A stretch of 64,000 nt of DNA, taken from positions 93,601 to 157,600 of the forward strand of contig CAXGWU010000001.1 of the NCBI GenBank assembly GCA_964013565.1, in the 5' to 3' direction. The notes beneath the pieces were generated by a model. The model made no database searches, was not told where the DNA came from, and was given only the letters and a program-made list of their open reading frames with translations. The translations under genes and the position numbers were made by a program. This DNA is from an uncultured Oligoflexia bacterium (lineage in GTDB: Bacteria; Bdellovibrionota; UBA1018; UBA6935). Shown piece by piece: positions 496 through 59,092 of this stretch; the first letter of the stretch is position 1, and each line of letters opens with the position of its first letter.

Positions 496-1368
496 ATGAG
501 GTTTACTTTTTTTATTGGTTTATTATTGTTTTCAACGTCCCTTTTTGCAGAAACTCTGTCTCACCAAATGGATCGTTTTCGGGTTCAAATTTTGAAATCT
601 ACCGTAGAGCCTTATGAAGAATCGCTTGGTCCGATTGTCTTTATCAAAGCTCCAACAGTGTTAGAGCAGAGTGTTTGGTTTACTCAGCTTAAAAAAATGA
701 TGAATGAACTTCCTAAAGAAGTGAATGTTTCTGTCATTTTGTATGGACCTCAGACTAAACCTGAAGTGTTAGCATCTCCTCATCATTGGGTGAACACCTC
801 ACTAACCCCACCTTGGAGTATTCAAAAGAAATTTGAAGCAGTTTATCGGGAGAAGGTAGGAACCTCAGAAACTTCATTGAAGGAATTTTCTGAAGCGTTT
901 TTTAAGTTTCATTTCATGCATGGAAATTTAAATTATGTTCGAATAATCAGAAATGAAATTTCAACTCTTGTCGCAGGTTTTTATTTTTCAGAAGATCCAA
1001 AAGAAAGAAAAATTTATTTTGATCGAATGATTCAACTAGACGGTTTAGTTACAGGAAGTATTCATGAGCCTATCGTTCATTTTGTGACTGAACATATGAT
1101 TGAGGCATTGAAAACATCTATGAATAAAGCAATAGAAAGCTTCGTATTAGATTTATTGAAGAAATGGAAGCATACGTCTGCTTCAATGTATGTTGATTTA
1201 TTAGAGTCGTTTACGAAAGAACTCAAGACTCGTTTAAAAAATAAAGGTTTTGAATCTGATTTATCTTCAAAAAAAGTTCGAATGATTGTGAGTATGCATA
1301 AGGCTTTGATCATTATCCAAGCTAATCAACCTTGTCCGACTCATTTTAAAGCACTTAAAGATGATTAA
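496..1368 (+). CDS. hypothetical secreted protein with C-terminal CxxxF motif
   Basis: 290-aa ORF with signal peptide MRFTFFIGLLLFSTSLFA. Its single cysteine lies in the C-terminal QPCPTHFKALKDD. No family recognised. Confidence 0.6.
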   Translation: MRFTFFIGLLLFSTSLFAETLSHQMDRFRVQILKSTVEPYEESLGPIVFIKAPTVLEQSVWFTQLKKMMNELPKEVNVSVILYGPQTKPEVLASPHHWVNTSLTPPWSIQKKFEAVYREKVGTSETSLKEFSEAFFKFHFMHGNLNYVRIIRNEISTLVAGFYFSEDPKERKIYFDRMIQLDGLVTGSIHEPIVHFVTEHMIEALKTSMNKAIESFVLDLLKKWKHTSASMYVDLLESFTKELKTRLKNKGFESDLSSKKVRMIVSMHKALIIIQANQPCPTHFKALKDD

Positions 1369-1723
1369 GGAATGCTCCAGTTTTAAGTCCAAGGAGTCCC
1401 AGTAAAAGTCCGCCGATGACTGAAGCTCCAATATAGAAAATTGCAGGGCCGTTGAGTCCATTTTGAAGAAGACGAAGAGTGTCGATAGAGAAGGTTGAGA
1501 AAGTAGTAAAGCTTCCAAAAAAACCAACAGTGATTCCGATCACGAATGGAGATGGGGACTGAAAAAATGAAAGTGCTAATCCTAGGCCAAAAGCTCCAAT
1601 TAAATTAATGATTAAGGTTGTGAGTGGAAACTGAGAGGCGGGGAGGATAAACGATACTCCGTATCGACAGATTGCTCCCAAAGACCCAAACGTTCCGATA
1701 AAAAAAAGAGTTTTTACAGCCAT
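1355..1723 (-). CDS. crcB: fluoride ion channel CrcB/FluC
   Basis: 122 aa with four hydrophobic segments. Typical CrcB motifs GSLGAICRY and GFFGSFTTFSTF. Confidence 0.9.
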   Translation of the reverse strand: MAVKTLFFIGTFGSLGAICRYGVSFILPASQFPLTTLIINLIGAFGLGLALSFFQSPSPFVIGITVGFFGSFTTFSTFSIDTLRLLQNGLNGPAIFYIGASVIGGLLLGLLGLKTGAFLNHL

Positions 1724-2370
1724 TCAATTAACGTTTCGATCGATTTTTGAATTCCACTAAAAACATCTGAAAGTTTTGCATCATCATACATATATGCAGG
1801 ACTAGAAATGATTTTATGAGATTGATCGGTATGAATTTCGTTTGTAAGACAAACATGGTGTTTGTGTCCCATGGAGACGAGTGCGTCTGCAGCTTCTCCT
1901 TGGGGACCAAGTGTCATTTCAAAAGATTCGTTTTTGAAAATCATTCCAAGAAGAGCTGGGGCAATGCATAAGGCAACAATTGGTTTTTTGTTTTGATAGA
2001 AAGTTTCGATTTTAGATTTCACCAAAGGATGAACGGAGCCTTTTGGACCTTCAAAAGCAAATGTACAGAAGTTCTTTGCAACCCCAAATCCTCCAGGGAG
2101 TACAAGTGCATCATAAGATTTTGGATCACATTCTTCCAGTGACTTAATTTGACCTCGGGCAATCCTTGCGGATTCAATGAGTTGATTTCTTTGCTCAGAA
2201 ACAGCCTGCCCACTGAGGGTGTTGATAACTTCTTTCTGGTTTTCATTGAGGGCAAAAAGGTGGACATCGACTGGATGAGAGTCCAGTGCTAGTAGTGTAC
2301 AAATAGACTCTCTTATTTCGGCTCCATCTAAATAACCACACCCAGAAAGTAAGACTGCAATTTGTTTCAT
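1714..2370 (-). CDS. elbB: ElbB-type DJ-1/PfpI family protein (glyoxalase-like)
   Basis: From internal Met MKQIAVLLSGCGYLDGAEIRE..LVLPGGFGVAKN..CIAPALL the protein is collinear with E. coli ElbB. The 54-codon upstream extension of the ORF (to 2532) has no homology-like features. Confidence 0.85.
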   Translation of the reverse strand: MKQIAVLLSGCGYLDGAEIRESICTLLALDSHPVDVHLFALNENQKEVINTLSGQAVSEQRNQLIESARIARGQIKSLEECDPKSYDALVLPGGFGVAKNFCTFAFEGPKGSVHPLVKSKIETFYQNKKPIVALCIAPALLGMIFKNESFEMTLGPQGEAADALVSMGHKHHVCLTNEIHTDQSHKIISSPAYMYDDAKLSDVFSGIQKSIETLIEWL

Positions 2371-3030: not shown

Positions 3031-3054
3031 TAAGCCATTATTTCTGGAGTTTCT

Positions 3055-4455
3055 ATGAACGCATTGTTTCGTTTTTTAAGTTCTTTGAAGCTCGCGGTGA
3101 TCACCATCGTTGGGATTGCTATTGCACTGACAGTCGCTACTTTTCTGGAATCTTGGTATGACACTCGGACTGCGCGATTTTGGGTGTATCGGTCCTTTTG
3201 GTTTTATGGGATTTTGGCTTTATTAGGGGTAAATATTTTTGCGGTAATGGTTGATCGTTGGCCGTGGAAAAAACGACATCTTCCTTTCTTACTCGCACAT
3301 ATTGGAATTTTAATGTTGCTCTTTGGATCTTGGATGACCTATCAATCCGGACTCGATGGCTCTTTGATGTTGGAGGAGGGGCAGTCTTCTCCAAGAGTAG
3401 AACTCGAAGAAAACGTCCTCGTGCTTATTGATTCAATGAAAACCCAAATTCTACCCATTGAATGGAAGCCTGCTCATTATCCTTTTGAACCTTATTCTTT
3501 AGGTTCTTTCGATTTGGAAATGGATCAATGGATTTCTCATGCAGAACCTAAGATTCAATTTTCTAAAGCTCAGTCAGATGAACCTCCTGCAATTGAATTA
3601 GTAATTGAGGGAGGACCAATGAATTTTGAAAAGGCAATTTGGTTATTTGCTGGTGATCAAAATTGGAGCACTCTTTCTTTGGGACCGGCACAATTTACAC
3701 TGTTTCCAGTCAGTGTTGGTGTTGATGTGAAACAGTTATTTTCAGTACCGATTCGTAAAAATCATGCCTTTTTTTGGAGAGGAAAGAAAAACGAACTGCA
3801 TTATAGAATTTACTCAAAAGATGGAACTTATATGGGTGGAAGTCTATCTGAAAAATCTCAAGAAACTGTTTTGAGTACGGGCTGGATGAAGCAGATTAAA
3901 GAACTGAAACTACGCGTTCGTCAGTGGATGCCTCATGCATTAAACGAGACTTCCTATCATCCTGCAAGGGTTCAAAAAGGACCCGATGCTCCACCTTCAG
4001 CGATTCATTTAAGAGTGAAGGGAAAGTCCTCTGTGGGGGTATGGCTTGGTTTAGGAGATCGAGCAGTTTTAGATACGGGTGAAACAGAAATCCAAATTCA
4101 GTACCGTAGAAAACAAGTGATGCTTCCTTTTAGTTTGCACTTAGAAGAGTTTAAGATTCAAAATTATCAAGGAACTTATAATCCTGCGATGTACTCTTCA
4201 TTTGTAAGAGTCATTGACGAAAATGCACCTCAAGAAAAAATTGAAATTAAAATGAATGATCCATTAAAATGGAAGGGGTTCACTTTTTTTCAATCGAGTT
4301 ATGTTCCTGCACGACCTAGACCTACGATTTCGATTTTTACAGTGAATCAGGATCCAGGTCGATTCATGAAGTACTTGGGATCTATTTTGTTAGTTTTAGG
4401 TTCTGCACTTTTATTTATTCGAAAATACGTTGGAAAAAAGGGGAAAATATCATGA
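3055..4455 (+). CDS. resB: cytochrome c biogenesis protein ResB/Ccs1 (system II)
   Basis: N-terminus FRFLSSLKLAVITIVGIAIALTVATFLES, a large periplasmic domain and a C-terminal TM with the conserved FQSSY-like region. Overlaps ccsA by 4 nt. Confidence 0.85.
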   Translation: MNALFRFLSSLKLAVITIVGIAIALTVATFLESWYDTRTARFWVYRSFWFYGILALLGVNIFAVMVDRWPWKKRHLPFLLAHIGILMLLFGSWMTYQSGLDGSLMLEEGQSSPRVELEENVLVLIDSMKTQILPIEWKPAHYPFEPYSLGSFDLEMDQWISHAEPKIQFSKAQSDEPPAIELVIEGGPMNFEKAIWLFAGDQNWSTLSLGPAQFTLFPVSVGVDVKQLFSVPIRKNHAFFWRGKKNELHYRIYSKDGTYMGGSLSEKSQETVLSTGWMKQIKELKLRVRQWMPHALNETSYHPARVQKGPDAPPSAIHLRVKGKSSVGVWLGLGDRAVLDTGETEIQIQYRRKQVMLPFSLHLEEFKIQNYQGTYNPAMYSSFVRVIDENAPQEKIEIKMNDPLKWKGFTFFQSSYVPARPRPTISIFTVNQDPGRFMKYLGSILLVLGSALLFIRKYVGKKGKIS

Positions 4456-6119
4456 AAAGGTTAATTCTACTGGGGCTTTTAGTTTCTTCCTTTGTTTGGG
4501 CACAGCCCCAGCCTCATAATTTTAGTTTTTCACAAATAAAAAGAATTCCTATTCAAAATGGTGGGCGTTTAAAGCCTTTAGATTCATTTGCCAGAGAATG
4601 GGTTTTAGGAATTACAGGGTCTAGAACTTTTAAAGGTTTTGATTCGGTTGATTTAATTCTTTCATGGATTTCTTTTCCCAATGAATGGGAAAAAGAACCT
4701 TTTATCCGAATTAATCGTAAGGATGTAAAAAAACAACTTTTGTTGTCAGAAGACCGAAAATACTTCTCGCCACAAGAACTCACCCATAATGCGGCTTTTC
4801 TGCAGTATGCAGATCAGATTGCTAGTGAGATGGGAGGACAGGGAGTAAAAAAAGCTCAGGTGACAAAAACAGGAGTAAAAGAGGATGGTCGTCAGAGGGA
4901 ACTGAAGACGGTATTAGGAAGACTCACCTCTTTTCGTCGAGTGACTTCGGGGGAGGTGTGGACTCTCGTTCCAGATCCCCAAAAGTGGAAGTCAATTGCA
5001 GACTCCTCGTCCGCACCTGAAATTGAAAAAAGCTTTAAATCTCTTATTCGGGCCTACGTCGCTTCTGAGAAAGATGCTTTTAGTCAGGCAGCTGTTTTGT
5101 TGAAAGGGGCTGTCGAAGGAAAAATGAAAACTCAAGGTGCCGATATACAGACGGTTCAGTCTCGAGCAGGACTTGAAACGCTTAGCAATGAAATTCGCTT
5201 TTTTCAAAAAGCGTGGTCTTTGTATTTACTTGCAGGACTTTGTTTTTTGATGATGTGGGTAAGTCAAAGAAAGCGTTGGAAAGTTCTTGCGTGGGGCCTT
5301 GTTAGTTTAGGGTTTGTTTTTCATGTTTTAGGTTTTGGAATTCGAGTTTTTCTTACACAAAGAGCTCCTGTGACGAATATGTATGAGTCCATTGTTTGGG
5401 TAAGTTTCGGAGTGATGGTTTTTGCTTTTATTCTTTATCGACTTCAGAAGAAAAAGATTTTAATGACTACTGCTTGTTTTCTTTCTGCTTTAGCGTTGAT
5501 CGCTGCGGATGCCAATCCTACCATGTTAAATCCAGGACTGGATCCATTGGTTCCTGTTTTGAGAAGCAACTTTTGGCTTACCATTCATGTCCTGACCATT
5601 ACATTGGGGTACGCAGCATTTGCCCTGACTTATGGATTAGCAAATATTAATCTGTTTCATTTTTTAGCTGCAGCTTTGAAAGCTAAAAAAGAAAAGGTGA
5701 AACCTAAAGTTTCTCCTAAAATGGCTGATTTAAATCAACTGACCTATCGTGCGATGCAGTTTGGTGTGGTCTTACTCGCCGCAGGAACTATTTTGGGAGG
5801 AGTCTGGGCTGACTACTCCTGGGGAAGGTTTTGGGGATGGGACCCAAAAGAAGTGTGGGCTCTTATTGCTTTACTTTGCTACCTTGCTATTCTGCATGGT
5901 CGTTATGCGGGCTGGGTGAGACCTTTTGGCTTTGCTGCTTGGTCAGTGCTTGGGTTTACTTCAGTGGTAATGGCTTGGTATGGAGTGAACTTTGTGTTGG
6001 GAGTTGGACTTCACTCCTACGGGTTTGCGTCCGGTGGAATGGAGTGGGTGGCAACAGCTGTTTTGATACAAATTATTTTGGTTCTTCTTGTCTCTTTTTT
6101 TCATAAAAGAGCTTCTTAA
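4452..6119 (+). CDS. ccsA: cytochrome c biogenesis protein CcsA/ResC (system II heme handling)
   Basis: Trp-rich WWD motif WGRFWGWDPKEVWAL, multiple TM helices and conserved His residues. Carries a long N-terminal periplasmic extension. Confidence 0.9.
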   Translation: MKRLILLGLLVSSFVWAQPQPHNFSFSQIKRIPIQNGGRLKPLDSFAREWVLGITGSRTFKGFDSVDLILSWISFPNEWEKEPFIRINRKDVKKQLLLSEDRKYFSPQELTHNAAFLQYADQIASEMGGQGVKKAQVTKTGVKEDGRQRELKTVLGRLTSFRRVTSGEVWTLVPDPQKWKSIADSSSAPEIEKSFKSLIRAYVASEKDAFSQAAVLLKGAVEGKMKTQGADIQTVQSRAGLETLSNEIRFFQKAWSLYLLAGLCFLMMWVSQRKRWKVLAWGLVSLGFVFHVLGFGIRVFLTQRAPVTNMYESIVWVSFGVMVFAFILYRLQKKKILMTTACFLSALALIAADANPTMLNPGLDPLVPVLRSNFWLTIHVLTITLGYAAFALTYGLANINLFHFLAAALKAKKEKVKPKVSPKMADLNQLTYRAMQFGVVLLAAGTILGGVWADYSWGRFWGWDPKEVWALIALLCYLAILHGRYAGWVRPFGFAAWSVLGFTSVVMAWYGVNFVLGVGLHSYGFASGGMEWVATAVLIQIILVLLVSFFHKRAS

Positions 6120-8230
6120 GAGAGTTTAGATTTCATTTGTTCTAAAAAAGAAGACACCTTCTGTTCGTGTGCTTCTCGAAGAACTTGGCTTGAAAGATCA
6201 GGTGTAGATGAGACATCTTCTGTGAAAATTAAGTTTCCGGGTATTTCTGATAGGAATCGAGAAGGGTACCGAGGTACTGGTTTCCCGTATCGAATTCTAT
6301 TTTTTGCACGAGTCAGATAGAGTTTTTCTTTTGCACGAGTGATTCCAACGTAGCAAAGACGACGTTCTTCACTATAGTCTGTTGCTTCATCCATGACTCT
6401 TTGATGAGGAAGGTAACCATCCTCCATTCCCACTAAAAAGACAGTGGGGAATTCTAAGCCTTTTGAGCCATGTAAAGTCATGAGTGTCACTTCGTCTTTT
6501 TCCTTACTTTCCTCTTCTTCGCTTTCTTCTTCGGCATCAAGAGTCAATCGAGTGATGTATTCTCTTAAAAACATAAAGCTGTTTTCAGCAGGTTCTTCAA
6601 GTTTCATCTGTCCAAGGCCATGTGCGAGCTCTTGAACCATTTCCCATCGCTGAGATGCTTGTAGGGCATCATCAACGTCGTTTTCTATTCCAGTTCTCAT
6701 TCCTATCCATTCAAAAGTTTGCCTTGCCCAGTCCGCCATAGCCGTTGGTTCAGGCTCAATCTTTTCTAATGCGTTTCTCATCTTTTGGATAAGAGAAGCG
6801 AAGGTCATGACCGCTTGTTTGGGTTTAGTCTTTAAGTCTGCATCAGGAATTGACTCAAAAAAAGAACATTGGTTTTCTACTGAATGGCTATGAATGGTGT
6901 CGATGGTTTTTTTCCCGATTCCTCTTGCAGGCCAATTAATGATTCTTCGAAGTGCAGTTTCTTCATCTGGATTTAAAATCGTTTTCCAGTAACTGAGGGT
7001 ATCTTTGATTTCTTTTCGGTCTAGAAAAGAAAAAGATCCAACTAAACGATAAGGAATCCCTTTCATTCGGAGTGCTTCTTCGAAATGTCTACTTTGTGGA
7101 TTGGATCGAAATAGAATTGCAAAATCACTCCAGTTCATGAGTGTTTTGACTTCCCCTCCCTCGTGTTTTTTTGCGAGATCAAAAATTCGCTCGGCTACGG
7201 TAGTTGCTTCGTCATGATCATCTTCAGTTAAGATGAGTGTTATCGGAGGTCCATCTTCTTTTTGAGACCAAAGCGACTTAGGGTGCCTAACCGAATTATT
7301 TTGAATAACTTGATTTGCGGCATCTAAAATAGTTTGTGTGCTTCGATAATTTTGATCAAGAGTTACTGTTTTTGCTCCTGGGTAGTGTTTTCCAAAATTT
7401 AAAATGTGGGAAGGATCAGCCCCCCTCCAAGCATAAATAGATTGGTCATCGTCTCCCACCACGCAAATATTTTGTTGCTTTAGGGTAAGGAGTCGAATGA
7501 GTTCAAATTGGGCTTGATTGGTGTCTTGGTACTCATCAACAAGAATGTATTTAAATCGATCATTATAGGCGTCACAGACTTCAGGGTGTTTTTTTAATAA
7601 ATCAACAGCGTTGAATAATAAATCGTCAAAGTCCATCGCATTCATGGCCCGAAGTTGATCTTGATACTCCGGATAGGTGGTTGCCATTTCTAAAGCAATT
7701 GGAGAGGATGCCTCATTTCTAGCTGAATTCATAAAAAAAGCTTCAGATTGATGAGGGGGAATAAATCTGTTTTTTGCTTGTCCAATTCCAAACAAGATAA
7801 AAGAAGGATCGAACTTTTTATCATCCACACTATTTTTTCTTAGAATTTTTCTGATGATCTCAATTTGATCATTTTGATCTAAAATAGAAAATTGTGAAGT
7901 GTATCCTAAGCGACTCGCTTCTTGTCTTAAGATTTTAACGCAAAGACTATGAAAAGTAGAAACAGTTAGTCCTTGTGTTCTTTTTTGTGTGATTTTTCTC
8001 ACTTCTGAATAAACGCGGTCTCTGAGTTCTCCAGCAGCCTTATTTGTAAAGCTAAGTCCTAATATTTGGCGCGGAGAGACCTTCTTTTGAGTAATCAAAT
8101 GAATCATTCGATAGGTCATTGTGCTGGTCTTTCCACTCCCTGCTCCTGCTAGGACAAGAAGGGGACCTTCTTCGTGGAGAACGGCTTGGCGTTGATTTGG
8201 ATTGAGTTTTTTTAAGTACTTCGTTTGCAT
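6116..8230 (-). CDS. uvrD: UvrD/PcrA/Rep-family ATP-dependent DNA helicase
   Basis: Helicase SF1 motifs AGAGSGKT, DEYQDTN, QNYRS, LHGSKGLEF and VGITRAK. Confidence 0.9.
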   Translation of the reverse strand: MQTKYLKKLNPNQRQAVLHEEGPLLVLAGAGSGKTSTMTYRMIHLITQKKVSPRQILGLSFTNKAAGELRDRVYSEVRKITQKRTQGLTVSTFHSLCVKILRQEASRLGYTSQFSILDQNDQIEIIRKILRKNSVDDKKFDPSFILFGIGQAKNRFIPPHQSEAFFMNSARNEASSPIALEMATTYPEYQDQLRAMNAMDFDDLLFNAVDLLKKHPEVCDAYNDRFKYILVDEYQDTNQAQFELIRLLTLKQQNICVVGDDDQSIYAWRGADPSHILNFGKHYPGAKTVTLDQNYRSTQTILDAANQVIQNNSVRHPKSLWSQKEDGPPITLILTEDDHDEATTVAERIFDLAKKHEGGEVKTLMNWSDFAILFRSNPQSRHFEEALRMKGIPYRLVGSFSFLDRKEIKDTLSYWKTILNPDEETALRRIINWPARGIGKKTIDTIHSHSVENQCSFFESIPDADLKTKPKQAVMTFASLIQKMRNALEKIEPEPTAMADWARQTFEWIGMRTGIENDVDDALQASQRWEMVQELAHGLGQMKLEEPAENSFMFLREYITRLTLDAEEESEEEESKEKDEVTLMTLHGSKGLEFPTVFLVGMEDGYLPHQRVMDEATDYSEERRLCYVGITRAKEKLYLTRAKNRIRYGKPVPRYPSRFLSEIPGNLIFTEDVSSTPDLSSQVLREAHEQKVSSFLEQMKSKLS

Positions 8231-8310
8231 GGACGATCTTTACTTTAAGGATACGCGGTGCGCTAATCAATCAGAATTCCTTGATTTTATAAGAATCAAA
8301 AAGGAAAAGT

Positions 8311-9795
8311 TTATCGTTTACTGTTAAAAGACAAAAATACACGATTGCATTTTAAATTTTCCCAGCTTTTTTGGTGATCTTGATAAGATTTCACAAGGTT
8401 ATCCAGTATTCTGTTTTTGAAAGGAGCCTTTTCAGAGAAAATTCTTGTTACTTTTTTGCTTGTCATTGAAATTTTTTGAATCAATGTAAAAAGGGTTACC
8501 GAAGGCTGAACGTCTCTTAGAACAGTATTGAGAATGTTTTCAAATTCTTTAGAGGAGATTTTCTTGTTTTTTCGTGCTACGGCTGTTTGTTCAAGAACGA
8601 GAAGAGGGATCCAGCGGTTTTTATAGTTTTTTGAAATTCTATGATAGAATTCAAAAAATTTAGAAATATCTTGTTTTTTACTTTCTTTGTTGAATGGTTT
8701 GTAAAAATTAGCAATTTCAGAATTGATAGATTCAATGTTTATTTTTTCTTTTTCCATTTTTAAAAGTAAATCTTCTTCATAATTCTTTTTTGAGATTCTT
8801 TTTTTTGTCCTATTCTTGATTTTGAATTGGTAGCCTAGCGCTTGAGCTTTTTTTATGACTTCCGCTAAAAAAGAATCGCTTGTAACAAGTTCGTAAATCG
8901 CTTTTTGATATCTAAGGAGATTCATTCTTACATCCGAAGACTTGGGGCCGAGTGACTTGGCGTAGCTATGATTGTTTTTATCTGTTGTAATTTCTGCAAA
9001 GCTTTGATTCCACGCGCCTACATAATGTTCATATCCAACTTCAGCAAACTTTGTTGAGACTTGATCATAGTAGTGAAGAGGAACGATGTTTTTATGATAT
9101 TCTGTTTGATCTGCTTGTTCTAAATTTTTTAATGTAGTTTCTTGAATTTTTCTTTTTTCCTTTAGTTCATATATGGATTCTCGAAAGGTTGGGGCAACTA
9201 CGCCTATAAAATAAAGTCGAGAAATGATGTCTTTGAGGTTTCCCCCGGAGTTTTCGTAGAGTCGGTACATTGCAGCAAGACAAGCTCGTCCTTGTCGTCC
9301 ATTTCCTTTAGAAACGGTGTCTACGAGTATGAGAGGTCTACCATTCATTCCATTTTTTAAGTCAAACCCTTTGCTTTTAAAAAGGCTATAGATTTGTTCG
9401 TCTGTAGGGTTGAATTTTGGACTAAAATCAGGATCCATTCCAAAAGTTGCTTTACTCATCCCCACTCTAATTACTTTATTGGGTTCTCCGATGCTATTGA
9501 AAAACCCTTCAATAATATCTGAAAATATTAGACTATCTCGACCTAAGAAGCCAAAAACTGCGTCTGGATAGATAAAAGATAAATGAGCGATAAATCTTGG
9601 TGCCTCTTTTTCTATAAATTGAAACCAATCAGGAAAAGGATTGTTTCCAGGAATTTCTTTTAAAACAGATTCCACCTTCTTCATAGATGGTCTTACGTTT
9701 TGATTGATTAAATTATTAATATCTTGGTCTTTTTGAGTCCAAGATAACATAGGAGAAAATAAGATAAGTAAGGCAATATATATTTTTGTTTTCAT
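8311..9795 (-). CDS. exported hypothetical protein, GRD-family paralogue (PRTase-like motifs, tentative)
   Basis: Signal peptide MKTKIYIALLILFSPMLSW. FGFLGRDSLIFSDIIEGFF..GEPN..IRVG and GRPLILVDTVSKGNGRQG resemble the HGPRT-type VLKGGYKFFADLL and VLIVEDIIDTGKT loops. Full-length paralogue of 16931-18463. C-terminal KCNRVF motif. Confidence 0.45.
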   Translation of the reverse strand: MKTKIYIALLILFSPMLSWTQKDQDINNLINQNVRPSMKKVESVLKEIPGNNPFPDWFQFIEKEAPRFIAHLSFIYPDAVFGFLGRDSLIFSDIIEGFFNSIGEPNKVIRVGMSKATFGMDPDFSPKFNPTDEQIYSLFKSKGFDLKNGMNGRPLILVDTVSKGNGRQGRACLAAMYRLYENSGGNLKDIISRLYFIGVVAPTFRESIYELKEKRKIQETTLKNLEQADQTEYHKNIVPLHYYDQVSTKFAEVGYEHYVGAWNQSFAEITTDKNNHSYAKSLGPKSSDVRMNLLRYQKAIYELVTSDSFLAEVIKKAQALGYQFKIKNRTKKRISKKNYEEDLLLKMEKEKINIESINSEIANFYKPFNKESKKQDISKFFEFYHRISKNYKNRWIPLLVLEQTAVARKNKKISSKEFENILNTVLRDVQPSVTLFTLIQKISMTSKKVTRIFSEKAPFKNRILDNLVKSYQDHQKSWENLKCNRVFLSFNSKR

Positions 9796-9797
9796 TT

Positions 9798-11288
9798 CTA
9801 TTTTCCTCTCATGAGTGCAATTGCATCTTCTTCTGAATCAATAAGATGAATTCTTCTTTTTAACCATTCAGGGTAATGATCAGAGATTAAGTTTTTAAGT
9901 AACGGTTTATAGAATTCGCTATTTATAAAAGCTAATTGAGAGCGCTTATTTGGATTTCCAGAAAAATCAACAAAAGTTGTTGCTAGTTCTTTCATCGTTC
10001 CATTGCCTCCAGGTCCTACAAAAATAAGGTCTTTGTCGTGCAGTAAAAAAGGAATTCGTGTTTCATAATCCATTGATTCAATGACAAATCTTTTATTGCT
10101 AAAAGAATAAGATTTCCCAATGATAATATCGATGGCAGTTCCTCCATTATCAATGCTTGCATTTGCTGCGGCTTCCATGAGGCCACCCCCCCCACCGCTT
10201 GATAAGATATATTTATTTTTTGCAGAAACTTTAGCTACGAGTTGAACTAGTTGTCTCCAGCGATAGTCAAACGAACTAGACCCAAAAAAAACCGCTTTTT
10301 TATGATCTTTCAAACTTTCAGAAATATAATCTATATCTTCAATTCCAGCTAAGTAATTAGAGATGATTAATTTAAAACTATAATCAAATTGATGACTAAA
10401 CTTTTCTTCGTTGAAAGGAATAATGCTTTTATATCTATTGGGACCCGGAGTAATAAAACTTAAGTCATTTTTAATTTTTAAGTATGAAGACTTAAATTTT
10501 CCTAATGCTTTGAAATTTAAAAAGTCTGAATCCCATTCATTTTTATAGTTAATGAGGAAATCTAGTTTATCGATTAAATGAAGAGCTAAGGCTGTAACAG
10601 AACGAGTATCACCTACTGACTTTCCTATAGAAAAAGCTTTAAGTCTTAAGTAAGGATTTTCAATTGCAATGATGTTTTCATTTAAATTTTCTTTATTTGG
10701 GTCCGCAGTAATGCCTACTCCAAGTTTCCCTAATGTTTTTTGTATATCTTTCGCTGATATTGAATCTGCATCGTAGAAAAATATTTGAGAAAAATTAGAT
10801 AGTGTTTTTTTGAGTGAATTGAGATCGACTGTGGTTGGGTAATCGGTGGTTCCAAAAAGAAGAGTGTATGGATTCATATTGGAAAACGAATCTAACCACT
10901 TAAATCTCATAAGATCTGAAAGAAATGATTTTGATTGATCTTTTCTATCTAATTTAAAAATTTCCTCTATTGATAATTCTTGAGGTTTACTACTTTTTGA
11001 TGGAAGTTTTCTATTCTTGTTTTCGTAATGACTATTGGAATAACCTTTATAAGAATATGGGCTGTCTGTATCTAGACTTGTAACTGGAGATTGATAATCA
11101 AATTGGTATGTGTTGTTAACAGCAATCTCACTTATATCAGGAACTTCATCAATTTTAGGTGGTTTGATTCCGTGAATTCCAAAAACTAAAGCGCATTGAG
11201 AAGAAAATAAATGGTCCAAATTAGAAGTAGCGTTGGATGTTAATGTATAGATGATACCTACTATAGATATCAAAAAAAGATTTTTCAT
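9798..11288 (-). CDS. exported tandem LOG/TIGR00730-like protein (degenerate N-repeat plus intact C-repeat)
   Basis: Signal peptide MKNLFLISIVGIIYTLTS. The C-terminal domain carries both LOG signatures, SSGGGGGLMEAAANAS and VGPGGNGTMKELAT. Paralogue of 15189-16880 (YETRIPFLLHDK / YETRIPLLLHEK). The single Cys lies in an N-terminal CALVF. Confidence 0.65.
   Translation of the reverse strand: MKNLFLISIVGIIYTLTSNATSNLDHLFSSQCALVFGIHGIKPPKIDEVPDISEIAVNNTYQFDYQSPVTSLDTDSPYSYKGYSNSHYENKNRKLPSKSSKPQELSIEEIFKLDRKDQSKSFLSDLMRFKWLDSFSNMNPYTLLFGTTDYPTTVDLNSLKKTLSNFSQIFFYDADSISAKDIQKTLGKLGVGITADPNKENLNENIIAIENPYLRLKAFSIGKSVGDTRSVTALALHLIDKLDFLINYKNEWDSDFLNFKALGKFKSSYLKIKNDLSFITPGPNRYKSIIPFNEEKFSHQFDYSFKLIISNYLAGIEDIDYISESLKDHKKAVFFGSSSFDYRWRQLVQLVAKVSAKNKYILSSGGGGGLMEAAANASIDNGGTAIDIIIGKSYSFSNKRFVIESMDYETRIPFLLHDKDLIFVGPGGNGTMKELATTFVDFSGNPNKRSQLAFINSEFYKPLLKNLISDHYPEWLKRRIHLIDSEEDAIALMRGK
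10186..10193 (-). repeat. G8 homopolymer (C8 on the plus strand) inside the LOG GGGxG motif codons
   Basis: Direct read: ggccaccccccccaccgc. On the coding strand this is ggt ggg ggg ggt ggc, encoding GGGGG. Confidence 0.95.
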
Positions 11289-13237
11289 TTTATGTCCCCA
11301 ATAAAATTTTTCTCACATTTTTCCTCAATATCTCCATTAATTACTTCTTTTATAAATGTTTTTTTTATGTGAAGAGATTGAGCCCATTTATTTCCGAGTT
11401 CATCTAAATAGAGGAGTCTAGTTTCGGTATCTGTGGTTGTCGGAATGAGATGACCGTAGTACCAAAGGCTCCACGTTCCATTGTGAAAATATAAACTATC
11501 TGGAGTTAAACCGTGAATATATAGATTTAAATGAACTAGATGATCAAAAAAATCCGCAAGTGCTGTCCATGCAATTGTTTCATGAATTGGAACCGCTGCT
11601 TTATTTGAAAGCTCTCTTAAAGAAACTCCTTGTGGTTCATCTATCGCAACAAAATAAAGACTGTTTCTTATCTTAGAAACAATAATTCTATTCTCTTGTA
11701 GGTGCAATAGCTCATAGTATGAAGGTGTTCCTGGGTCAAACCTAAAGATCACTTGTTTTAAATTTTTTTCTTTTTGAATGATTTCATATTTTTTCAATTC
11801 TCCAATGTTCACTTTTTTTGGCGAAGAATTAATAAAAGGAGGCTCTTTTTTTATGTCATTATTTTCATAATTTAATTCATTACTTTTTTTTCGTCTTTTC
11901 TTTTTGGGACCTTTTGAATGATTTTGGAAGTTTTGTTTATCTAGTAATTCTTTCCAAAATAAATCAATTTCTTTTTTTTTGCTTTTAAGTTCTTCTCTTA
12001 ACCATTTTGTTTTTAGTTTGTTTGAGTATTCATTTAGAGTTCTATGTTTGCTGAAAAAAGTTCTAATTGGTCCGCTATCAACTATTTGCCATTCTTTTCC
12101 ATCAAAAATAAGATTGTCAGGGTTTAATCCGGAGACATAAATGTATTTTTCAGAAGCTTTAATGAAAAATTTTTCTAGTGCTAATTTTTTTGGGTTATTT
12201 TTTGTGTCTAAAATTTTTTCATCGAGAATCGCTTCTCTTAATCGAGTTCCTTCAATGAAATTCATAAGTAGAGACTTTTTATCTGTACTCCATTTCACAT
12301 TAACTGAAGACAGACCGTTTTTTCTCCATTCTTCTGATAGCTCTATCTGTTTTTTGAAACTTTTTTGAATATCCGCACTATCGTTTACTGGAACTTTCCA
12401 AGCCCATAGTTCTCCATTTGAGTCCTTTAACTGATGAACTCTACCTGTTTTTCCAACGCCTACGGCTTCTTTTTCTAATGAGTAACCTTCCGGAATATCG
12501 ACCTCTTTAACTGAGTTAATGAGAGCTAATAATTTTTCCCAGTTTTTTTCTTCAATCAAATCTTTGGCATTTTGTAAGAACTTTCTCCTTTGGCTAACTT
12601 CGGTAATGGTATTGGCTTTTTTTAGAACTTGAAAATGAATTGGTTCGAGATCAATTTTTGGGAAAACATACCGACTCAATCGCCTGAGAGTTTTTGTGTT
12701 TGCTCGGCTTGTGATAATCCAAATTAATTCAAAATCATCTCTATAAGAGGATAGAGGAAGGATATGTTTTGTAAAAGATTCTAATTCATCTAATGGTATG
12801 ATCGCTGCTGTATAACGAAGAGAAGGAAGTAAATTTTTTTCATTACTTTGAGTGAATAGTTTAAAGAGTGTAGAAAAGTTATAAATTTTTTTGTCGCTTA
12901 AAATGCCAATTAGAACATTGTTATTGTTTTTTCCTTTTTCTGAATGCAAATATTGATTAATAATGATGTCTCTTAGACAGAAACTTTCTGTCGCTAGTTT
13001 AATATAAAATTTATCAGGTGGGTTGTTTTGTGATTTAATGATTTCATCAATGATAGCTATATTCATCGCTTTATATTCATTGCTTTTCGCCAAAGATAGT
13101 TTTTTTATAACCTGAGAAATCGCCTCCCACTGTTGATTTTCGATTAGTTTTTTGAGTCGATGTGGAACCACGGTTTGAGCATGTGCTGGTATGATAAAAA
13201 ACAGACAAGCTAAATATAAGAAAATTTGTTTTTTCAT
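11285..13237 (-). CDS. exported protein with two atypical protein-kinase-like modules
   Basis: Signal peptide ending AHA-Q. Module 1: GVGKTGRV (G-loop), WAWKV, LLMNFIEG (hinge), GLNPDNLIF, IVDSG. Module 2: FVAIDEPQGVSL, IHGLTPDSLYF. Lys-rich linker KGPKKKRRKK. C-terminal KCEKNF. Confidence 0.45.
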   Translation of the reverse strand: MKKQIFLYLACLFFIIPAHAQTVVPHRLKKLIENQQWEAISQVIKKLSLAKSNEYKAMNIAIIDEIIKSQNNPPDKFYIKLATESFCLRDIIINQYLHSEKGKNNNNVLIGILSDKKIYNFSTLFKLFTQSNEKNLLPSLRYTAAIIPLDELESFTKHILPLSSYRDDFELIWIITSRANTKTLRRLSRYVFPKIDLEPIHFQVLKKANTITEVSQRRKFLQNAKDLIEEKNWEKLLALINSVKEVDIPEGYSLEKEAVGVGKTGRVHQLKDSNGELWAWKVPVNDSADIQKSFKKQIELSEEWRKNGLSSVNVKWSTDKKSLLMNFIEGTRLREAILDEKILDTKNNPKKLALEKFFIKASEKYIYVSGLNPDNLIFDGKEWQIVDSGPIRTFFSKHRTLNEYSNKLKTKWLREELKSKKKEIDLFWKELLDKQNFQNHSKGPKKKRRKKSNELNYENNDIKKEPPFINSSPKKVNIGELKKYEIIQKEKNLKQVIFRFDPGTPSYYELLHLQENRIIVSKIRNSLYFVAIDEPQGVSLRELSNKAAVPIHETIAWTALADFFDHLVHLNLYIHGLTPDSLYFHNGTWSLWYYGHLIPTTTDTETRLLYLDELGNKWAQSLHIKKTFIKEVINGDIEEKCEKNFIGDIK

Positions 13238-16880: not shown

Positions 16881-16930
16881 CGTTTATTTAGTCCTTTTTT
16901 AAAAGTAAGATTTGCTTTTTTTAAAATGAT

Positions 16931-18463: not shown

Positions 18464-18464
18464 T

Positions 18465-27854: not shown

Positions 27855-27887
27855 AAACAACAAAGACGCGATTAGAGAGGCAAATTC

Positions 27888-33499: not shown

Positions 33500-33500
33500 G

Positions 33501-39600: not shown

Positions 39601-39809
39601 TGGAAGGCGACTATATAACAGTTGACCACAATGAAAAGAGAATTTCTCATGCGCTTTTAAAGAATACAAAAAAGTCATCATTAAAAAAAACGACGTAAAA
39701 CGTTGACTTAGAGAGGTTTAAAAAATAGAAAATGAGTTCAACCTAAAAAAACTAAAGAAAGTTTTAGAAGATGGACGTCTTGCAGACAATAGAGCGCGGA
39801 GTAAAAGTG

Positions 39810-41669: not shown

Positions 41670-41680
41670 AGGAGACAGAT

Positions 41681-43282: not shown

Positions 43283-43285
43283 TCA

Positions 43286-43930: not shown

Positions 43931-43943
43931 GGCGAGGAAAAGC

Positions 43944-54757: not shown

Positions 54758-55010
54758 AAACGAGCCCCTTTAGCGTTTTGTTTGTGATTTCAATAGTTAA
54801 CCTATCAAAGCTTTAAGAAAAGCAAAAGGAGTGGGGGTGTTTTGAGGTATTTATTATAAAAAACAATAAGTTATATGAATACTGTTGAAAAATAACCTTA
54901 AAAGTCAGATATTAAGGTTAAGGATCACTTCTATTACTCCGATAGGAAGTTAAGGTTTTATGGGCTTTTTGGTGTCCATGAATCTAAAAGTAAAAAAAAG
55001 GTTTAAGATC

Positions 55011-58000
55011 ATGAAAATACAACATTTCATTTTACCGCTCTCAGTGGTCTTTTTTGGGTTGATGGGAATAAGTCAGGCTTCTGGTGGACCTGCAACCCAA
55101 GAGGAAAAAGAAGCTCTTGTTTTTTTCAAGAACAATGGCCTGGAGTTAACTCTAAAAGAACTACGAGAAAATGAAAAAGATGCACAAAAAATAGCAGATA
55201 TGTGCACGAGCATTAAGGAAGACTATCAGCAGATTCCAGAAAGAGTAAAACAACGCTGTATTCATAGTGGGTCTGCAGGAACTTATATGCGGAATAAGTA
55301 CATTGTTAAATACACTCAAAGATTATTTAAAAAAGCAAACTGTGAAGGTGCAGATACCAAAGAATCGGTGATCGACTGTTATCAAAACATCCAAAATAAA
55401 TTGATTGATAAAAAAAATAAGTCAAAAAAGTCAGGGATTACCGGATATGGAAGACATTTCTCTAAGGTAAGACCGACTTTTAAAGAAGTTGCAGTGGATA
55501 AGTACTGCCATTCGATTGCACGAAAAAGAAGTGAAAACGGGGCTGCATTGCCTCCAACGTTTGTTACGGATTGTGTCGCTCTTGAGTATGGGCATTTAGC
55601 GGTCCTCGTAGAGGGACTTGATGTTAGAGATGATGAAAGTCTTTCTGGGACAAATATGATGCAAAAAAATGTTTCTCGTTTTGTGAGTCATTTACAAAAT
55701 CCAAAAGCATTTGAAGAAATCTTTAAAAAAGCCAGAGAGAAAGCAATTCGCCTTTCTAAAACTCCAGGGCAAAGTTTTCAAAAAGCTAATCTTGAATATC
55801 GAAGATTGGCTCGAATAGGTGCAGTCTTAAAGGAACTTGATGCCGTATGTAAAGGACTCAAAGGACAAAAGGCAAGAGCATGCGTACGTGAACAGCTGGG
55901 AGATATGAAGTATGAGCTCAGTCGTGGAGTGATGGAAAATGGTCTTGGTAATGAATTAGATTACGCAACCGCATGGGATTGGGCGAGAAGAGATTGTGTC
56001 GCTGCTTTGATTCAGCTCGATGGAAGTGAAGTTTCAGATACTAAAATAAGACAAAAAGAACTGAGAGATCAGTGTACTTCTCCTAAAGTGATTCAAGACA
56101 GGCTTTGGGAAGTTCCGAGCTTAGCTTTTGTTCCTCTAAAAAAAGGAGGAGGAGCAGGAGGTTCTGATGAGGACGGTGAGGGCTCAGGAGGAAGTGGCTC
56201 AGATGGGGAAAAGGGCGGAAGTTTTGGTGGCGTTGCTGGCGGTGGAAATGCAGACGCAGCTTCTTCCTCTGGTAATGTCGTTTTAGCTGATGATAAAGAT
56301 CATTGGAGTATTACCAATGATATTGCTTCTTTAAGAAATTTAATCAGTGAAAAAGTTTTTGACTCTAGTTCAGTTTGCCAAAGAGTCGCTTCAAAAGATG
56401 CAAACTTAAAGTATAAGAAAGAAGCAGCGTCCAGTCTTGGTGTTCCTGATGATGGCGTTTGTGTCGAATGTAAAAAAAGTGGAACGGGATTTTTAGGTAC
56501 CACTGTAGGTGACTTAGCTGAACACCTTGCTCATGAAAAAGCCGATGTGACTGTGGGTGAATATGACCGAATGCTTCGAAGGAAGTTTTTAAAAGTACTT
56601 TCCGATTCCTATAAAGAAGATTTTTTAGAAGATCTTCCTATTGAGAAAGAGGGAGCTTTTCCTGCTTCGAGGAAGAAAACATTTGGATCCTTGGGGCTTG
56701 ATGGATCGATGTGTGAAATTAATCCAAGTCTTTTAGATGCGATGGGTTTTGAGAAAGACGAAAAAGGGAACATTCAACCTGTGGTTCCTTTCCGAAAAAA
56801 CCAACTTGAAAAAGAGGATAGAATCGATCCTAAAAGAATTCGTTCATGCGCAAAAAGAATTTCTGATGCAAGAAATGCAGTGAGGACACGACTGTTTGGA
56901 AAAGACCCAGACGCTCTTCTTGACATGGTTTCTCAAGAAGATAAAGAGTTTGTGATTCAAAAAACAAAGCTTTATGAAGAAGTTGCGCAAGAGTGTCCAG
57001 AAGTCAAATGGGGTGCTCCTGGTGCTTCTCAGTTTCTTGGAAACCCTGGAAGCGAAGAAAAAGCGATGAAGTGGTATGACATCGAATTTAAAGGTTGGGG
57101 ATTTACTAAAGATAAAATTTCAAGAGATGGTCTTCCTTTTGTTACTCAATTTGGAGATTCATCTCTGAGTGATGCAGAGATTTCTTCTCGATTAACAAAA
57201 ATTAGAAAAGAAAGAAAAGATGCATATTTGAAACTGATCCATTCCACATGTGATCCTGATTTAAAACAAGCTGGGAAAATCACTTCTTATTTAAATAATA
57301 TGGCAGCTTTAGTTTCCGTGGATGATCCTGGTCATTTAAAAGATGAAAGAAGAGTGGGTGCGGACGGAAAAATTACCGCTTATGGAAAAATGAGAGATGC
57401 TCACGAGTGTGTCAATTTGACCAATAATGCAGATTTTAAACATGACGCATTTCAGACGTTTACGATGGTGGCGTGTACACTTGGAGAAGTGGCAGTGGGA
57501 GCATCAGGTGTGGGATTACCGATCACTGTTGGAATAGGTGCTGCGTGTTTTGGTGGAGAAGCATTAGAGCTTCTTGATCATATGAACCACAAATCTCAGA
57601 AAGCATCCTTTTTGTCGGCATGTGAACTCCTAAATGCGGGAAGAAAAGGAGTATGTGACTATGATTCTGCTCAAAAGGCAGCCCAAGAAGTTGAAGCGAT
57701 TTACGATGAATTAGTTCTAAGTGCTGCAATGAATGGAGTTGGGGTTTTGGGTGGAGACGTCCTAGGAAAAGGGTATGCGAAGGCAAAGCAGCTGAAGGGG
57801 GCTGCTCGTCGAATTAAGGATTGGAATACCTTATCTAAAGTGACTGGAGAGCTTGCTACCGCAAAGGGGCTTCAAAAGAAAATGAGCCGCTTGAAAAGGA
57901 TTGAAGATCAAATCGTGTCTCATCGAGGGCGGATCAGTCGACGAAAAATGAAAGCTCTTGAAAATGAAGCAGCTCGATTGAATAAGGAAATTTCAAGAGA

Positions 58001-58487
58001 TCTTGATGATGTGACCAATGCGATGATTGCTCAGATTAAGGTTAACGATCCAGCTCTTTATAAAGAAATGATTGCGGATGCGGCAGTTAAAAATAAAACG
58101 AATAAAATTGAACTTTTTGAAGATCTTTCTAGAAGAATGGATCAGAATGAAGCTTTTGCTAATAAAATGAGAGCTCAAGCAAAAGAGGCTCGAGAACGCT
58201 TGGCGGATACTCATCCAAATGTGCGGATGTACGACCCGGATCGGCAGCCTGCTGAGATTTTAGCGATTCAATCTAGAGTTGATGAAATCAAAAGTGGTTT
58301 AAAAGCAGATGAGAATCGACATTATTTTGAATTAGTCGAAGCTCATAAAAAGAAGCATGGAAGGAAACCAAGATTGCTTCAGCGAAGAAAGTATAAAAAA
58401 CAGGCTCGAGAACGCGCTGAGCTTGATATGAAACGAAAAGACGTTGACTTGGACAAACGTATCGTGAGTTGTCACGGAAAACGCTAA
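55011..58487 (+). CDS. very large hypothetical secreted protein (Cys-rich N-part, G/S/D linker, Gly-zipper-like hydrophobic hairpin, basic coiled-coil tail)
   Basis: Signal peptide MKIQHFILPLSVVFFGLMGISQA. Linker GGGAGGSDEDGEGSGGSGSDGEKGGSFGGVAGGG. Hydrophobic segment ACTLGEVAVGASGVGLPITVGIGAACFGGEA. K/R/E-rich C-terminus. Confidence 0.55.
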   Translation: MKIQHFILPLSVVFFGLMGISQASGGPATQEEKEALVFFKNNGLELTLKELRENEKDAQKIADMCTSIKEDYQQIPERVKQRCIHSGSAGTYMRNKYIVKYTQRLFKKANCEGADTKESVIDCYQNIQNKLIDKKNKSKKSGITGYGRHFSKVRPTFKEVAVDKYCHSIARKRSENGAALPPTFVTDCVALEYGHLAVLVEGLDVRDDESLSGTNMMQKNVSRFVSHLQNPKAFEEIFKKAREKAIRLSKTPGQSFQKANLEYRRLARIGAVLKELDAVCKGLKGQKARACVREQLGDMKYELSRGVMENGLGNELDYATAWDWARRDCVAALIQLDGSEVSDTKIRQKELRDQCTSPKVIQDRLWEVPSLAFVPLKKGGGAGGSDEDGEGSGGSGSDGEKGGSFGGVAGGGNADAASSSGNVVLADDKDHWSITNDIASLRNLISEKVFDSSSVCQRVASKDANLKYKKEAASSLGVPDDGVCVECKKSGTGFLGTTVGDLAEHLAHEKADVTVGEYDRMLRRKFLKVLSDSYKEDFLEDLPIEKEGAFPASRKKTFGSLGLDGSMCEINPSLLDAMGFEKDEKGNIQPVVPFRKNQLEKEDRIDPKRIRSCAKRISDARNAVRTRLFGKDPDALLDMVSQEDKEFVIQKTKLYEEVAQECPEVKWGAPGASQFLGNPGSEEKAMKWYDIEFKGWGFTKDKISRDGLPFVTQFGDSSLSDAEISSRLTKIRKERKDAYLKLIHSTCDPDLKQAGKITSYLNNMAALVSVDDPGHLKDERRVGADGKITAYGKMRDAHECVNLTNNADFKHDAFQTFTMVACTLGEVAVGASGVGLPITVGIGAACFGGEALELLDHMNHKSQKASFLSACELLNAGRKGVCDYDSAQKAAQEVEAIYDELVLSAAMNGVGVLGGDVLGKGYAKAKQLKGAARRIKDWNTLSKVTGELATAKGLQKKMSRLKRIEDQIVSHRGRISRRKMKALENEAARLNKEISRDLDDVTNAMIAQIKVNDPALYKEMIADAAVKNKTNKIELFEDLSRRMDQNEAFANKMRAQAKEARERLADTHPNVRMYDPDRQPAEILAIQSRVDEIKSGLKADENRHYFELVEAHKKKHGRKPRLLQRRKYKKQARERAELDMKRKDVDLDKRIVSCHGKR

Positions 58488-59092
58488 AAAAGATCAATGA
58501 GAACAATCTGTTCGTTTTGTTTGAGATACTTTAAAACAATCTGAGTGAGCATTTCAGCATAATCTTTAGGAGAGATTTCCTGGGGGTCTGGGGGATTGTT
58601 TAAATTAAATTCTGACTCTATAGAATGAAAGTAGTGATCAAAAGATTGAGGGTGAATCCCCAGGTCGTTGTCTTTAATGCCAAGAAGTTTTCCTGTGAAA
58701 TAGTATGTAATTTCCATACTGAAAATATCATATTGAAACTCTGTAAGATGAAGCTTTGGGATCTCTCCATGAAGAAATTTTTTAATTTCATCTAAAGTCA
58801 GTTCTATTTTTTCTTCCTCTGCAAGGAGGAGGTCATTGTTTTGATGTTCAAAAATGACAGCAGAAAAATCAAAAGTCGACCCTGAGACTTTTGTAAATGC
58901 TTCTTGAATGAATCTAAGGTCCGCCTTTTTTCTTTCTTGATCAATCATTGATTGAGGTTTTTGATTGGCTGGAACTAATCTGCTGTTTGGATCTTCAATT
59001 TCAAAAAGCTCGTTACAGAAAAAATCATCAGCAAAAGAGGTTCCTGATAGCAGAAAAAAGACCGTAAGTATCGAAAACTTCATGAGTTGCAT
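58484..59092 (-). CDS. hypothetical secreted acidic protein (single Cys in N-terminal CNELF)
   Basis: Signal peptide MKFSILTVFFLLSGTSFA. 202 aa. Confidence 0.55.
   Translation of the reverse strand: MQLMKFSILTVFFLLSGTSFADDFFCNELFEIEDPNSRLVPANQKPQSMIDQERKKADLRFIQEAFTKVSGSTFDFSAVIFEHQNNDLLLAEEEKIELTLDEIKKFLHGEIPKLHLTEFQYDIFSMEITYYFTGKLLGIKDNDLGIHPQSFDHYFHSIESEFNLNNPPDPQEISPKDYAEMLTQIVLKYLKQNEQIVLIDLF

Follow-up and report, generated by a model that had tools for sequence, protein, structure and literature searches.

We analysed a 64-kb stretch of the genome of an uncultured Oligoflexia bacterium (contig CAXGWU010000001.1, positions 93,601 to 157,600; hereafter the window), in which eleven exported proteins carry a short cysteine motif at one end. 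We show that this motif, C-x-x-φ-Φ, is a portable terminal tag of Bdellovibrio-like bacteria on Sec-exported enzymes that mostly depend on ATP, 5-phosphoribosyl-1-pyrophosphate (PRPP) or nucleotides. As read from the sequences, the general motif is Cys-x-x-hydrophobic-Phe/Tyr/Leu, and Phe is the local form of a hydrophobic residue at position +4 from the Cys.

All eleven C-x-x-x-F pentapeptides reported in the initial annotation were re-found at their coordinates on the translated open reading frames (ORFs; Table 1). Seven lie near the C-terminus (C-class: CPTHF, CNRVF, CNRIF, CQILF, CEKNF, CKTLF and CESEF), with the Cys 10–13 residues from the end as that annotation had noted, and four stand directly after the signal peptide (N-class: CALVF, CEENF, CRYQF and CNELF). 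The reported cysteine counts are also accurate: each tagged window protein has one to three Cys, and seven have exactly one. Naming proteins by the first coordinate of their gene, the extra Cys of p11285 and p13234 fall within the signal peptide, and that of p18465 (Cys24) lies at or near the signal-peptide cleavage site.

The initial annotation considered Phe at +4 in all eleven proteins to be beyond chance, which stands for the C-class but not for the N-class taken in the window alone. In a census of the last 15 residues of all 55 window ORFs, made independently of the earlier selection, 7 of 10 Cys have Phe at +4 (binomial P = 3e-7 at a Phe frequency of 0.060; P = 3.5e-6 once the paralogues p8311 and p16931 are collapsed). 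Of the other three terminal Cys, one is part of a cytochrome c CxxCH site, one belongs to a lipoprotein and one to a protein with 23 Cys. Outside the eleven proteins, Phe is found at +4 of 7 of the 173 Cys in the window. For the N-class, 4 of 29 Cys at residues 16–45 have the motif, which is not significant within the window, and this class is validated through its relatives only.

All-against-all BLAST identifies two paralogue pairs, p8311/p16931 and p9798/p15189, and finds the other operon proteins mutually unrelated; the eleven cases are therefore not eleven independent events. A repeated DNA element was rejected as the source of the tags because the 15-nt tag codons differ between genes. 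An unselected check came from following the 271-kb TARA Oceans scaffold that contains the window 9.5 kb further upstream (locus L016). There, the next ORF upstream of the window has AASCAQLF after its signal peptide, a twelfth tag with the predicted Phe, while a neighbouring M64 lipoprotein with 10 Cys and CLLGA near its end carries no tag.

Table 1. Tagged proteins encoded in or reaching into the window. SP, signal peptide; PRTase, phosphoribosyltransferase.
Coordinates	Strand	Protein	Tag and position	Cys and remarks
1-416	+	3′ end of 856-residue exported FAST/RAP-like protein (L016 7351-9921)	N-terminal CAQLF	Cys33
496-1368	+	Orphan exported protein, 290 residues	C-terminal CPTHF, nt 1333-1347	Sole Cys
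8311-9795	-	Family X, PRTase-like	C-terminal CNRVF, nt 8335-8349	
9798-11288	-	Second SP-bearing LOG/SLOG protein	N-terminal CALVF, nt 11181-11195	Sole Cys
11285-13237	-	Family Z, kinase-like	C-terminal CEKNF, nt 11303-11317	
13234-15192	-	Family Y, X-like alpha/beta N-domain and protein-kinase-like C-domain	C-terminal CQILF, nt 13261-13275	
15189-16880	-	SP, N-domain and LOG/SLOG domain	N-terminal CEENF, nt 16809-16823	Sole Cys
16931-18463	-	Family X, PRTase-like N-domain	C-terminal CNRIF, nt 16952-16966	Sole Cys
18465-19850	-	SP and PRPP synthetase (Prs) domain	C-terminal CKTLF, nt 18486-18500	Cys451 of 461
34767-35621	-	Orphan exported protein, 284 residues	N-terminal CRYQF, nt 35535-35549	Sole Cys
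35618-36532	-	Orphan exported protein, 304 residues	C-terminal CESEF, nt 35645-35659	Sole Cys; coupled to 34767-35621
58484-59092	-	Orphan exported protein, 202 residues	N-terminal CNELF, nt 59003-59017	Sole Cys

The tag and its +4 residue across lineages

Eight further metagenome lineages encode a related gene set: L002/L003/L004/L007 (named 'uncultured Bdellovibrio sp.'), L005, L006, L009/L010, L011, L012, L013 and L014. Loss of the motif in orthologues had been put forward as grounds for refuting it; in these eight lineages the tag is kept, in the same families and at the same end. A lone C-terminal Cys, 4–12 residues from the end, is found in Prs, in families X, Y and Z and in a 1099-residue kinase, and the C-terminal tag is present in all Prs orthologues of L002, L005, L006, L010, L012 and L013. 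The N-terminal carriers are LOG, RelA/SpoT and a small HipA/PI3K-like protein, each with its Cys a few residues past the signal peptide. L014 encodes an S41 peptidase with a C-terminal tag. The tag Cys is invariant in a 15-sequence alignment of family X, as is Cys640 of p13234 among the family Y orthologues, yet the C-terminal regions of these tag-bearing families range from 361 to 876 residues. By all-against-all BLAST the carriers are non-homologous and comprise at least nine unrelated folds; the tagged terminus is fixed within each family, and both termini are in use.

Relatives of these families were sparse in the collections scanned. A scan of genome contigs with p13234 gave no match, and one with the Y alignment gave a single true locus, in an 'uncultured Bdellovibrio sp.' metagenome-assembled genome (MAG). 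Metagenome contigs scanned with a 6-sequence X alignment yielded a single 3-kb locus, and a word-indexed homologue search returned three relatives for Y and three for X.

Unrelated proteins within one genome agree at +4, while orthologues differ between genomes. The residue is Phe in all 11 tags of the window, in 12/12 when that of L016 is counted, and in 5/6 of L010, Tyr in L002 (8/9) and L012 (7/7), and Leu in L005 (8/8), L006 (7/7) and L014 (4/4); L013 has Leu or Met (8/8) and L011 has Ile or Leu (3/3). Across 56 tags, 170 within-genome pairs are identical at +4, compared with 53.9 ± 5.8 under permutation, and none of 200,000 shuffles reaches 170. Restricting the set to one protein per family per genome leaves 54 identical pairs versus 16.2 ± 3.3 (0/200,000 shuffles). 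Base composition is not the cause of this pattern, as L010 (Phe) and L012 (Tyr) both have a GC content of 33%. Such uniformity of Phe, Tyr or Leu across unrelated proteins points to a single recognition surface.

The LOG family provides a further sample, since a HMMER scan with p15189 recovered 130 cluster representatives at E < 1e-10. Of these, 74 have a signal peptide closely followed by a Cys; +4 is hydrophobic in 63 of the 74 (85%, P = 8e-21), most often Leu (28), followed by Phe (13), Tyr (10) and Ile (7). Position +3 is hydrophobic in 51% of the 74, and the remaining positions between -6 and +10 show background levels only. Two features of the motif as first described therefore change: what defines the motif at +4 is a lineage-specific hydrophobic residue (Phe, Tyr, Leu or Ile) rather than Phe itself, and the basic tail is a feature of the window's genome alone, without conservation in other lineages.

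Exported enzymes and their isolated cysteines

The core of the tagged set is a minus-strand operon (8311-19850) of seven proteins, all with a Sec-type signal peptide: Prs, two LOG/SLOG proteins and four proteins without a Pfam match. From sequence and fold comparisons, we read this operon as exported versions of ATP- or PRPP-requiring enzymes. The translational coupling described earlier is borne out by ATGA start/stop overlaps at 11285-11288, 13234-13237 and 15189-15192, and at 35618-35621 in the orphan pair. An exported PRPP-centred operon is conserved between the window, L002, L005, L006, L010, L012 and L013; it contains Prs, one to three LOG nucleosidase-like proteins, several X paralogues, Y and Z, and in some lineages RelA/SpoT.

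The Prs assignment of p18465 rests on TIGR01251 (ribose-phosphate diphosphokinase; 180.4 bits against a cutoff of 113). Its signal peptide and tag are additions to the Prs family, and the tag begins right past the end of the catalytic-domain match. Four Prs orthologues (L002 3677-5125, L005 5645-7042, L012 4185-5558 and L013 4692-6116) have an extra N-terminal C-x4-5-C pair (e.g., Cys39/45), likely an internal disulfide; the window Prs does not have this pair. The LOG protein p15189 matches PF03641 (Lysine_decarbox; score 33.1, cutoff 27) and PF18306 (LDcluster4; 29.4, cutoff 26.3), and p9798 matches PF18306 (32.5, same cutoff); both fall under the TIGR00730 cutoff. Many signal-peptide LOG relatives (P0011-P0103) have an acidic and aromatic C-terminal tail (e.g., ...DEENYDWD, ...DDEYFDWGY or ...YEYDLDDWY), a second terminal motif that is absent from both window LOG proteins. 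Were the two activities combined, LOG (nucleoside monophosphate to base and ribose-5-phosphate) and Prs (ribose-5-phosphate and ATP to PRPP and AMP) would form an ATP-consuming cycle that converts ATP to adenine and PRPP.

The closest folds to the X domain are PRPP-dependent ribofuranosyltransferases (CriT of Bcs3, PDB 8a0c; a Thermobacillus composti enzyme, PDB 7shg) and type I PRTases, with which it shares an alpha/beta PRTase-like core. CriT is itself PRTase-like and uses PRPP (PMC10299916). By our reading, the X motif ILVDTVSxGxGRQGR resembles a PRPP loop, and the X genes are co-encoded with a PRPP synthetase. Unlike CriT-type enzymes, X proteins are exported and bear both a signal peptide and a Cys tag, and the confidence of the model behind the comparison is moderate (predicted local distance difference test (pLDDT) score of 64). 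Searches of the X and Y families against PDB sequences gave no significant match, and scanning X members against Pfam at relaxed thresholds yielded no consistent result. The family Y C-domain adopts a kinase-like fold according to Foldseek on the predicted structure. Family Z (11285-13237) has homologues in L002 (1002-3383) and in L010 (the Pkinase region of 6684-9983), and it aligns to weak Pkinase regions of relatives. The L002 orthologue ends in the tag CNSLY.

Outside the operon, Pfam and NCBIfam scans found no family match for the orphans p496, p34767, p35618 and p58484, and a word-indexed homologue search with p35618 returned nothing besides itself. The CAQLF of the 856-residue protein lies ~2.1 kb upstream of the window; this protein matches FAST_1 and RAP domains, RNA-binding modules of the eukaryote-organelle type. 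The initial annotation had also pointed to a C-terminal processing peptidase beside a C-class gene, and ORF 36711-38612 is indeed an untagged S41 peptidase with a PDZ domain, divergent to the tagged 35618-36532. The association of S41 with tagged genes recurs in L014, where the S41/PDZ peptidase 8529-10655 ends in C-terminal CVQAL and abuts a tagged LOG gene. The presence of a tag on this enzyme suggests, at the level of sequence, that it is cargo rather than a processor.

Tagged proteins are strongly depleted in other cysteines. The 56 tagged proteins contain 26 non-tag Cys in 29,110 mature residues, ~12-fold fewer than the 330 expected from the Cys frequency of untagged window ORFs (Poisson P = 3e-105). 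In 40 of the 56, the tag Cys is the sole mature Cys, and 11 of the 26 leftover Cys form close pairs or a triplet (e.g., Prs 39/45, X 421/424 and S41 558/563). An isolated, conserved Cys on an exported protein favours an intermolecular bond or a modification, as the initial annotation had proposed, given that the tag Cys is unpaired within its own protein. Bdellovibrionota encode disulfide-forming enzymes (10.64898/2026.03.05.709764). In AlphaFold models of two C-class proteins, the tagged tail has pLDDT scores by 10-residue block of 29–42 (p8311) and 26–28 (p13234), and the tag is predicted to sit on a flexible tail in both.

Possible roles of the terminal cysteine

Several known terminal signals bear a partial resemblance to the tag. 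Like a lipobox Cys, the N-class Cys comes right after the signal peptide, and p15189 has L-A-G-C. The lipobox [LVI][ASTVI][GAS]-C is, however, matched only by p15189 (SLAGC) and a few relatives. The residues before the N-class Cys are mostly polar or charged (FSSQC, PITC, DFFC, NWSC and KKKC), most of these Cys lie 5–15 residues past a type-I cleavage site, and the information in the tag lies downstream of the Cys (+3/+4) rather than upstream; a lipobox also leaves the C-class unexplained. CTERM domains (MYXO-CTERM, CGP-CTERM and the targets of exosortase, archaeosortase and rhombosortase) share with the tag an invariant Cys near the C-terminus and many unrelated exported carriers per genome. 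The comparison with MYXO-CTERM that had been drawn earlier nevertheless fails, as does that with exosortase-type domains. Only 4–12 residues follow the Cys in 40 C-class tags, there is neither a transmembrane helix nor a conserved basic cluster, mature N-termini carry the tag as well, linked sortase-type genes are absent, and NCBIfam CTERM models match none of the window proteins. A CaaX box places its Cys exactly four residues from the C-terminus; here the Cys is residue 5–13 from the end, and also found at N-termini. The C-terminal domain of the type IX secretion system is a beta-sandwich of ~70–100 residues, for which the C-terminal regions gave no Pfam or NCBIfam match, an absence that is suggestive only. 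By comparison, the conserved element here is five residues on a disordered tail.

Two further systems come closer. AB-type toxins are assembled in the periplasm with an interchain disulfide in the case of typhoid toxin (CdtB-PltA), and diphtheria toxin and ricin have comparable A-B links. As in these toxins, the tagged proteins are exported enzymes that would have to act in a reducing cytoplasm, carry one unpaired Cys (the tag Cys is the sole mature Cys in 40/56, and several of the remaining Cys form close pairs) and would be assembled after Sec export. In AB toxins the disulfide tethers cargo to carrier and reduction releases it, whereas here the disulfide is presumed, the Cys belongs to a portable five-residue tag on many unrelated enzymes, and no B subunit or carrier is seen among the conserved untagged genes. 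Encapsulin cargo-loading peptides and the encapsulation peptides of bacterial microcompartments are short terminal sequences on flexible linkers that bring diverse enzymes to one shared receptor. The tag likewise occupies one end or the other of diverse cargo, and the modelled C-terminal tails that bear it are flexible. Those systems differ in being cytoplasmic, with an adjacent shell gene and without Cys chemistry or signal peptides; none of the loci contains a shell-like gene, and every carrier has a Sec-type signal peptide. By analogy, the tag appears most like cargo-targeting peptides in layout and AB-toxin disulfides in presumed chemistry, and is a member of neither group. Our searches of the accessible literature turned up neither such a tag nor exported Prs or LOG proteins.

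Our preferred explanation, which we hold tentatively, is that the tag is a portable thiol docking handle, read by a shared, co-evolving partner, probably through an intermolecular disulfide, so that the cargo is delivered. The hydrophobic pair at +3/+4 would dock the free end of each protein into a pocket of this one partner, which might act as carrier, translocator or sorting factor. The tag thiol and the partner would then form an intermolecular disulfide in the oxidising periplasm, and heterogeneous cargo would be loaded onto a common route. Reduction in the cytoplasm of the target, or prey, would free the cargo, much as AB toxins are released when their interchain disulfide is reduced. A covalent link, with a mixed disulfide as the simplest case, is favoured by the isolation of the thiol, and release in the target cytoplasm would follow from the need of the cargo for ATP or PRPP. 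The carriers are of many kinds (Prs, LOG, PRTase-like, protein-kinase-like, RelA/SpoT, S41 and FAST/RAP), a heterogeneity that favours a common pathway or carrier over one defined complex. It is more doubtful that the tag is the cargo signal of an undescribed, redox-gated route by which Bdellovibrio-like predators deliver proteins into the prey cytoplasm. Such a route would have no equivalent among known secretion signals and might, with the same reserve, carry PRPP synthetase, LOG nucleosidases, PRTase-like transferases, kinases and (p)ppGpp/(p)ppApp-type synthetases.

Several points weigh against docking and delivery. A partner gene was sought across all loci, and nothing untagged is conserved in every locus. 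Three kinds of partner candidate (small proteins ending in KDCV, 5-Cys small proteins and proteins of 1081–1298 residues) were rejected, as they have no homologue in the window. The disulfide, secretion beyond the periplasm and the predatory lifestyle are all inferred, and placement in Bdellovibrionaceae/Bdellovibrio rests on two MAG names only. The window tags entered the permutation already selected for Phe, which the tags of the other eight lineages did not; the orthologue comparison left out the orphans p496, p34767, p35618 and p58484; and the quality of the two structural models is moderate, with a mean pLDDT of 62–64.

Some of the genes near the tag clusters deserve description in their own right. 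L002 20732-21382 and L012 3204-3866 encode small exported helical proteins (216–220 residues, 42% identical) with a single Cys and a K-D-C-V end; they adjoin the tag clusters of both Tyr lineages and are a possible partner in those lineages. L002 14589-18485 and L012 11953-15198 encode the untagged exported proteins of 1081–1298 residues, which lie among tagged genes, have 7 Cys each and are translocator-like in look, with several long hydrophobic segments in the L002 protein. In the window, 54960-58487 encodes a 1175-residue signal-peptide protein with an odd number of Cys (23), hydrophobic segments rich in Gly and Ala, and a C-terminal region that is long and charged. Neither Pfam nor PDB gave a match, and its gene is convergent with the tagged 58484-59092, with a 4-nt overlap. 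Speculatively, it is a candidate carrier or translocator.

It is unlikely, though worth weighing seriously, that the tags instead bond directly to each other, N-class to C-class through Φ-Φ packing, with LOG oligomers as the hubs of a disulfide-linked multi-enzyme assembly. The N-class tags are always found on LOG, and besides it on RelA/SpoT and small kinase-like proteins. Every locus examined has both classes and includes an N-class LOG gene, and no conserved third-party gene is seen; one motif on both classes, together with its genome-wide covariation, also fits Φ-Φ packing. The window orphans lie as adjacent N/C pairs (34767/35618 and the 856-residue gene/496), and this much of the N-to-C pairing suggested by the initial annotation stands, as both C-class genes outside the main cluster adjoin an N-class gene. 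Strict pairing, however, conflicts with the numbers of N-class and C-class genes, which stand at 2:5 in the cluster of the window, 4:5 in L002, 1:7 in L005, 2:6 in L013 and 3:1 in L014. Two neighbouring N-class genes of L014 overlap each other and adjoin no C-class gene, and the cargo (protease, RNA-binding-like protein, kinases and PRPP enzymes) is too heterogeneous for a single complex. A coiled-coil zipper is unlikely, as its hydrophobic periodicity at +7 is absent.

Another covalent modification of the Cys is improbable. A dedicated periplasmic enzyme that reads C-x-x-φ-Φ would add an acyl group or a lipid or small-molecule adduct and thereby anchor the proteins to membranes or vesicles. 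A single reactive Cys on the flexible end of a nearly Cys-free protein, within a short enzyme-style motif of only two informative positions, would suit such a substrate. Precedents for non-lipobox lipidation of exported proteins exist in Aat/dispersin glycine acylation and in rhombosortase and archaeosortase products. Known systems of this kind nonetheless use one terminus only, no acyltransferase or sortase-like gene is linked to any of the loci, and the strict uniformity of Phe, Tyr or Leu exceeds what a generic membrane-proximal hydrophobic residue would need.

Still less probable is a regulatory or structural thiol that has no partner, either a redox- or metal-sensing 'cysteine switch' that folds back on its own protein or a site of metal-bridged oligomerisation. 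The lone Cys is conserved, and the activity of these enzymes might need holding off in the producer's periplasm. A common intramolecular dock is nevertheless hard to reconcile with one five-residue motif on at least nine unrelated folds at either terminus, both modelled tails are disordered rather than packed on domains, and the lineage-wide covariation points to one external site. Finally, the two paralogue pairs, the canonical lipobox of p15189, the AT-rich genome in which Phe is common (6%) and the insignificance of the N-class within the window might suggest chance, low-GC composition, paralogue ancestry or ordinary lipoprotein signals, but this is effectively excluded by the probabilities for the C-class (3e-7), LOG +4 (8e-21) and covariation (0/200,000 shuffles), by the depletion of other Cys, by tags on non-homologous domains at both termini, by the polar or charged residues before most N-class Cys (NWSC, PITC, KKKC and KHRC) and by the fact that a C-terminal Cys cannot be a lipobox Cys.

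Neighbouring respiratory genes and wider significance

Two other stretches of the window contain what appear to be ordinary respiratory genes, an assignment that we read from gene order and Cys motifs only. The genes at 27231-34709, for a multihaem cytochrome c, a molybdopterin-type oxidoreductase and membrane subunits, have a layout like that of alternative complex III, and putative cytochrome c oxidase subunits lie at 39771-44741. System II cytochrome c biogenesis genes (ResB and CcsA) are found at 3055-6119.

For the question of how predators that invade the periplasm move enzymes into the prey cytoplasm, the tag points to those exported proteins whose biochemistry makes sense only in the presence of ATP and PRPP. 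For any Bdellovibrio-like genome it supplies a sequence rule by which candidate effectors can be listed, namely a signal peptide together with one lone Cys at a terminus and Φ at position +4 from it. The conserved exported PRPP-centred gene set (Prs, LOG, PRTase-like and kinase-like proteins) offers a second lead. If the tag is a covalent docking handle, it would be a five-residue, either-end tag, seemingly tuned by one residue per lineage, that may be usable for cargo loading.

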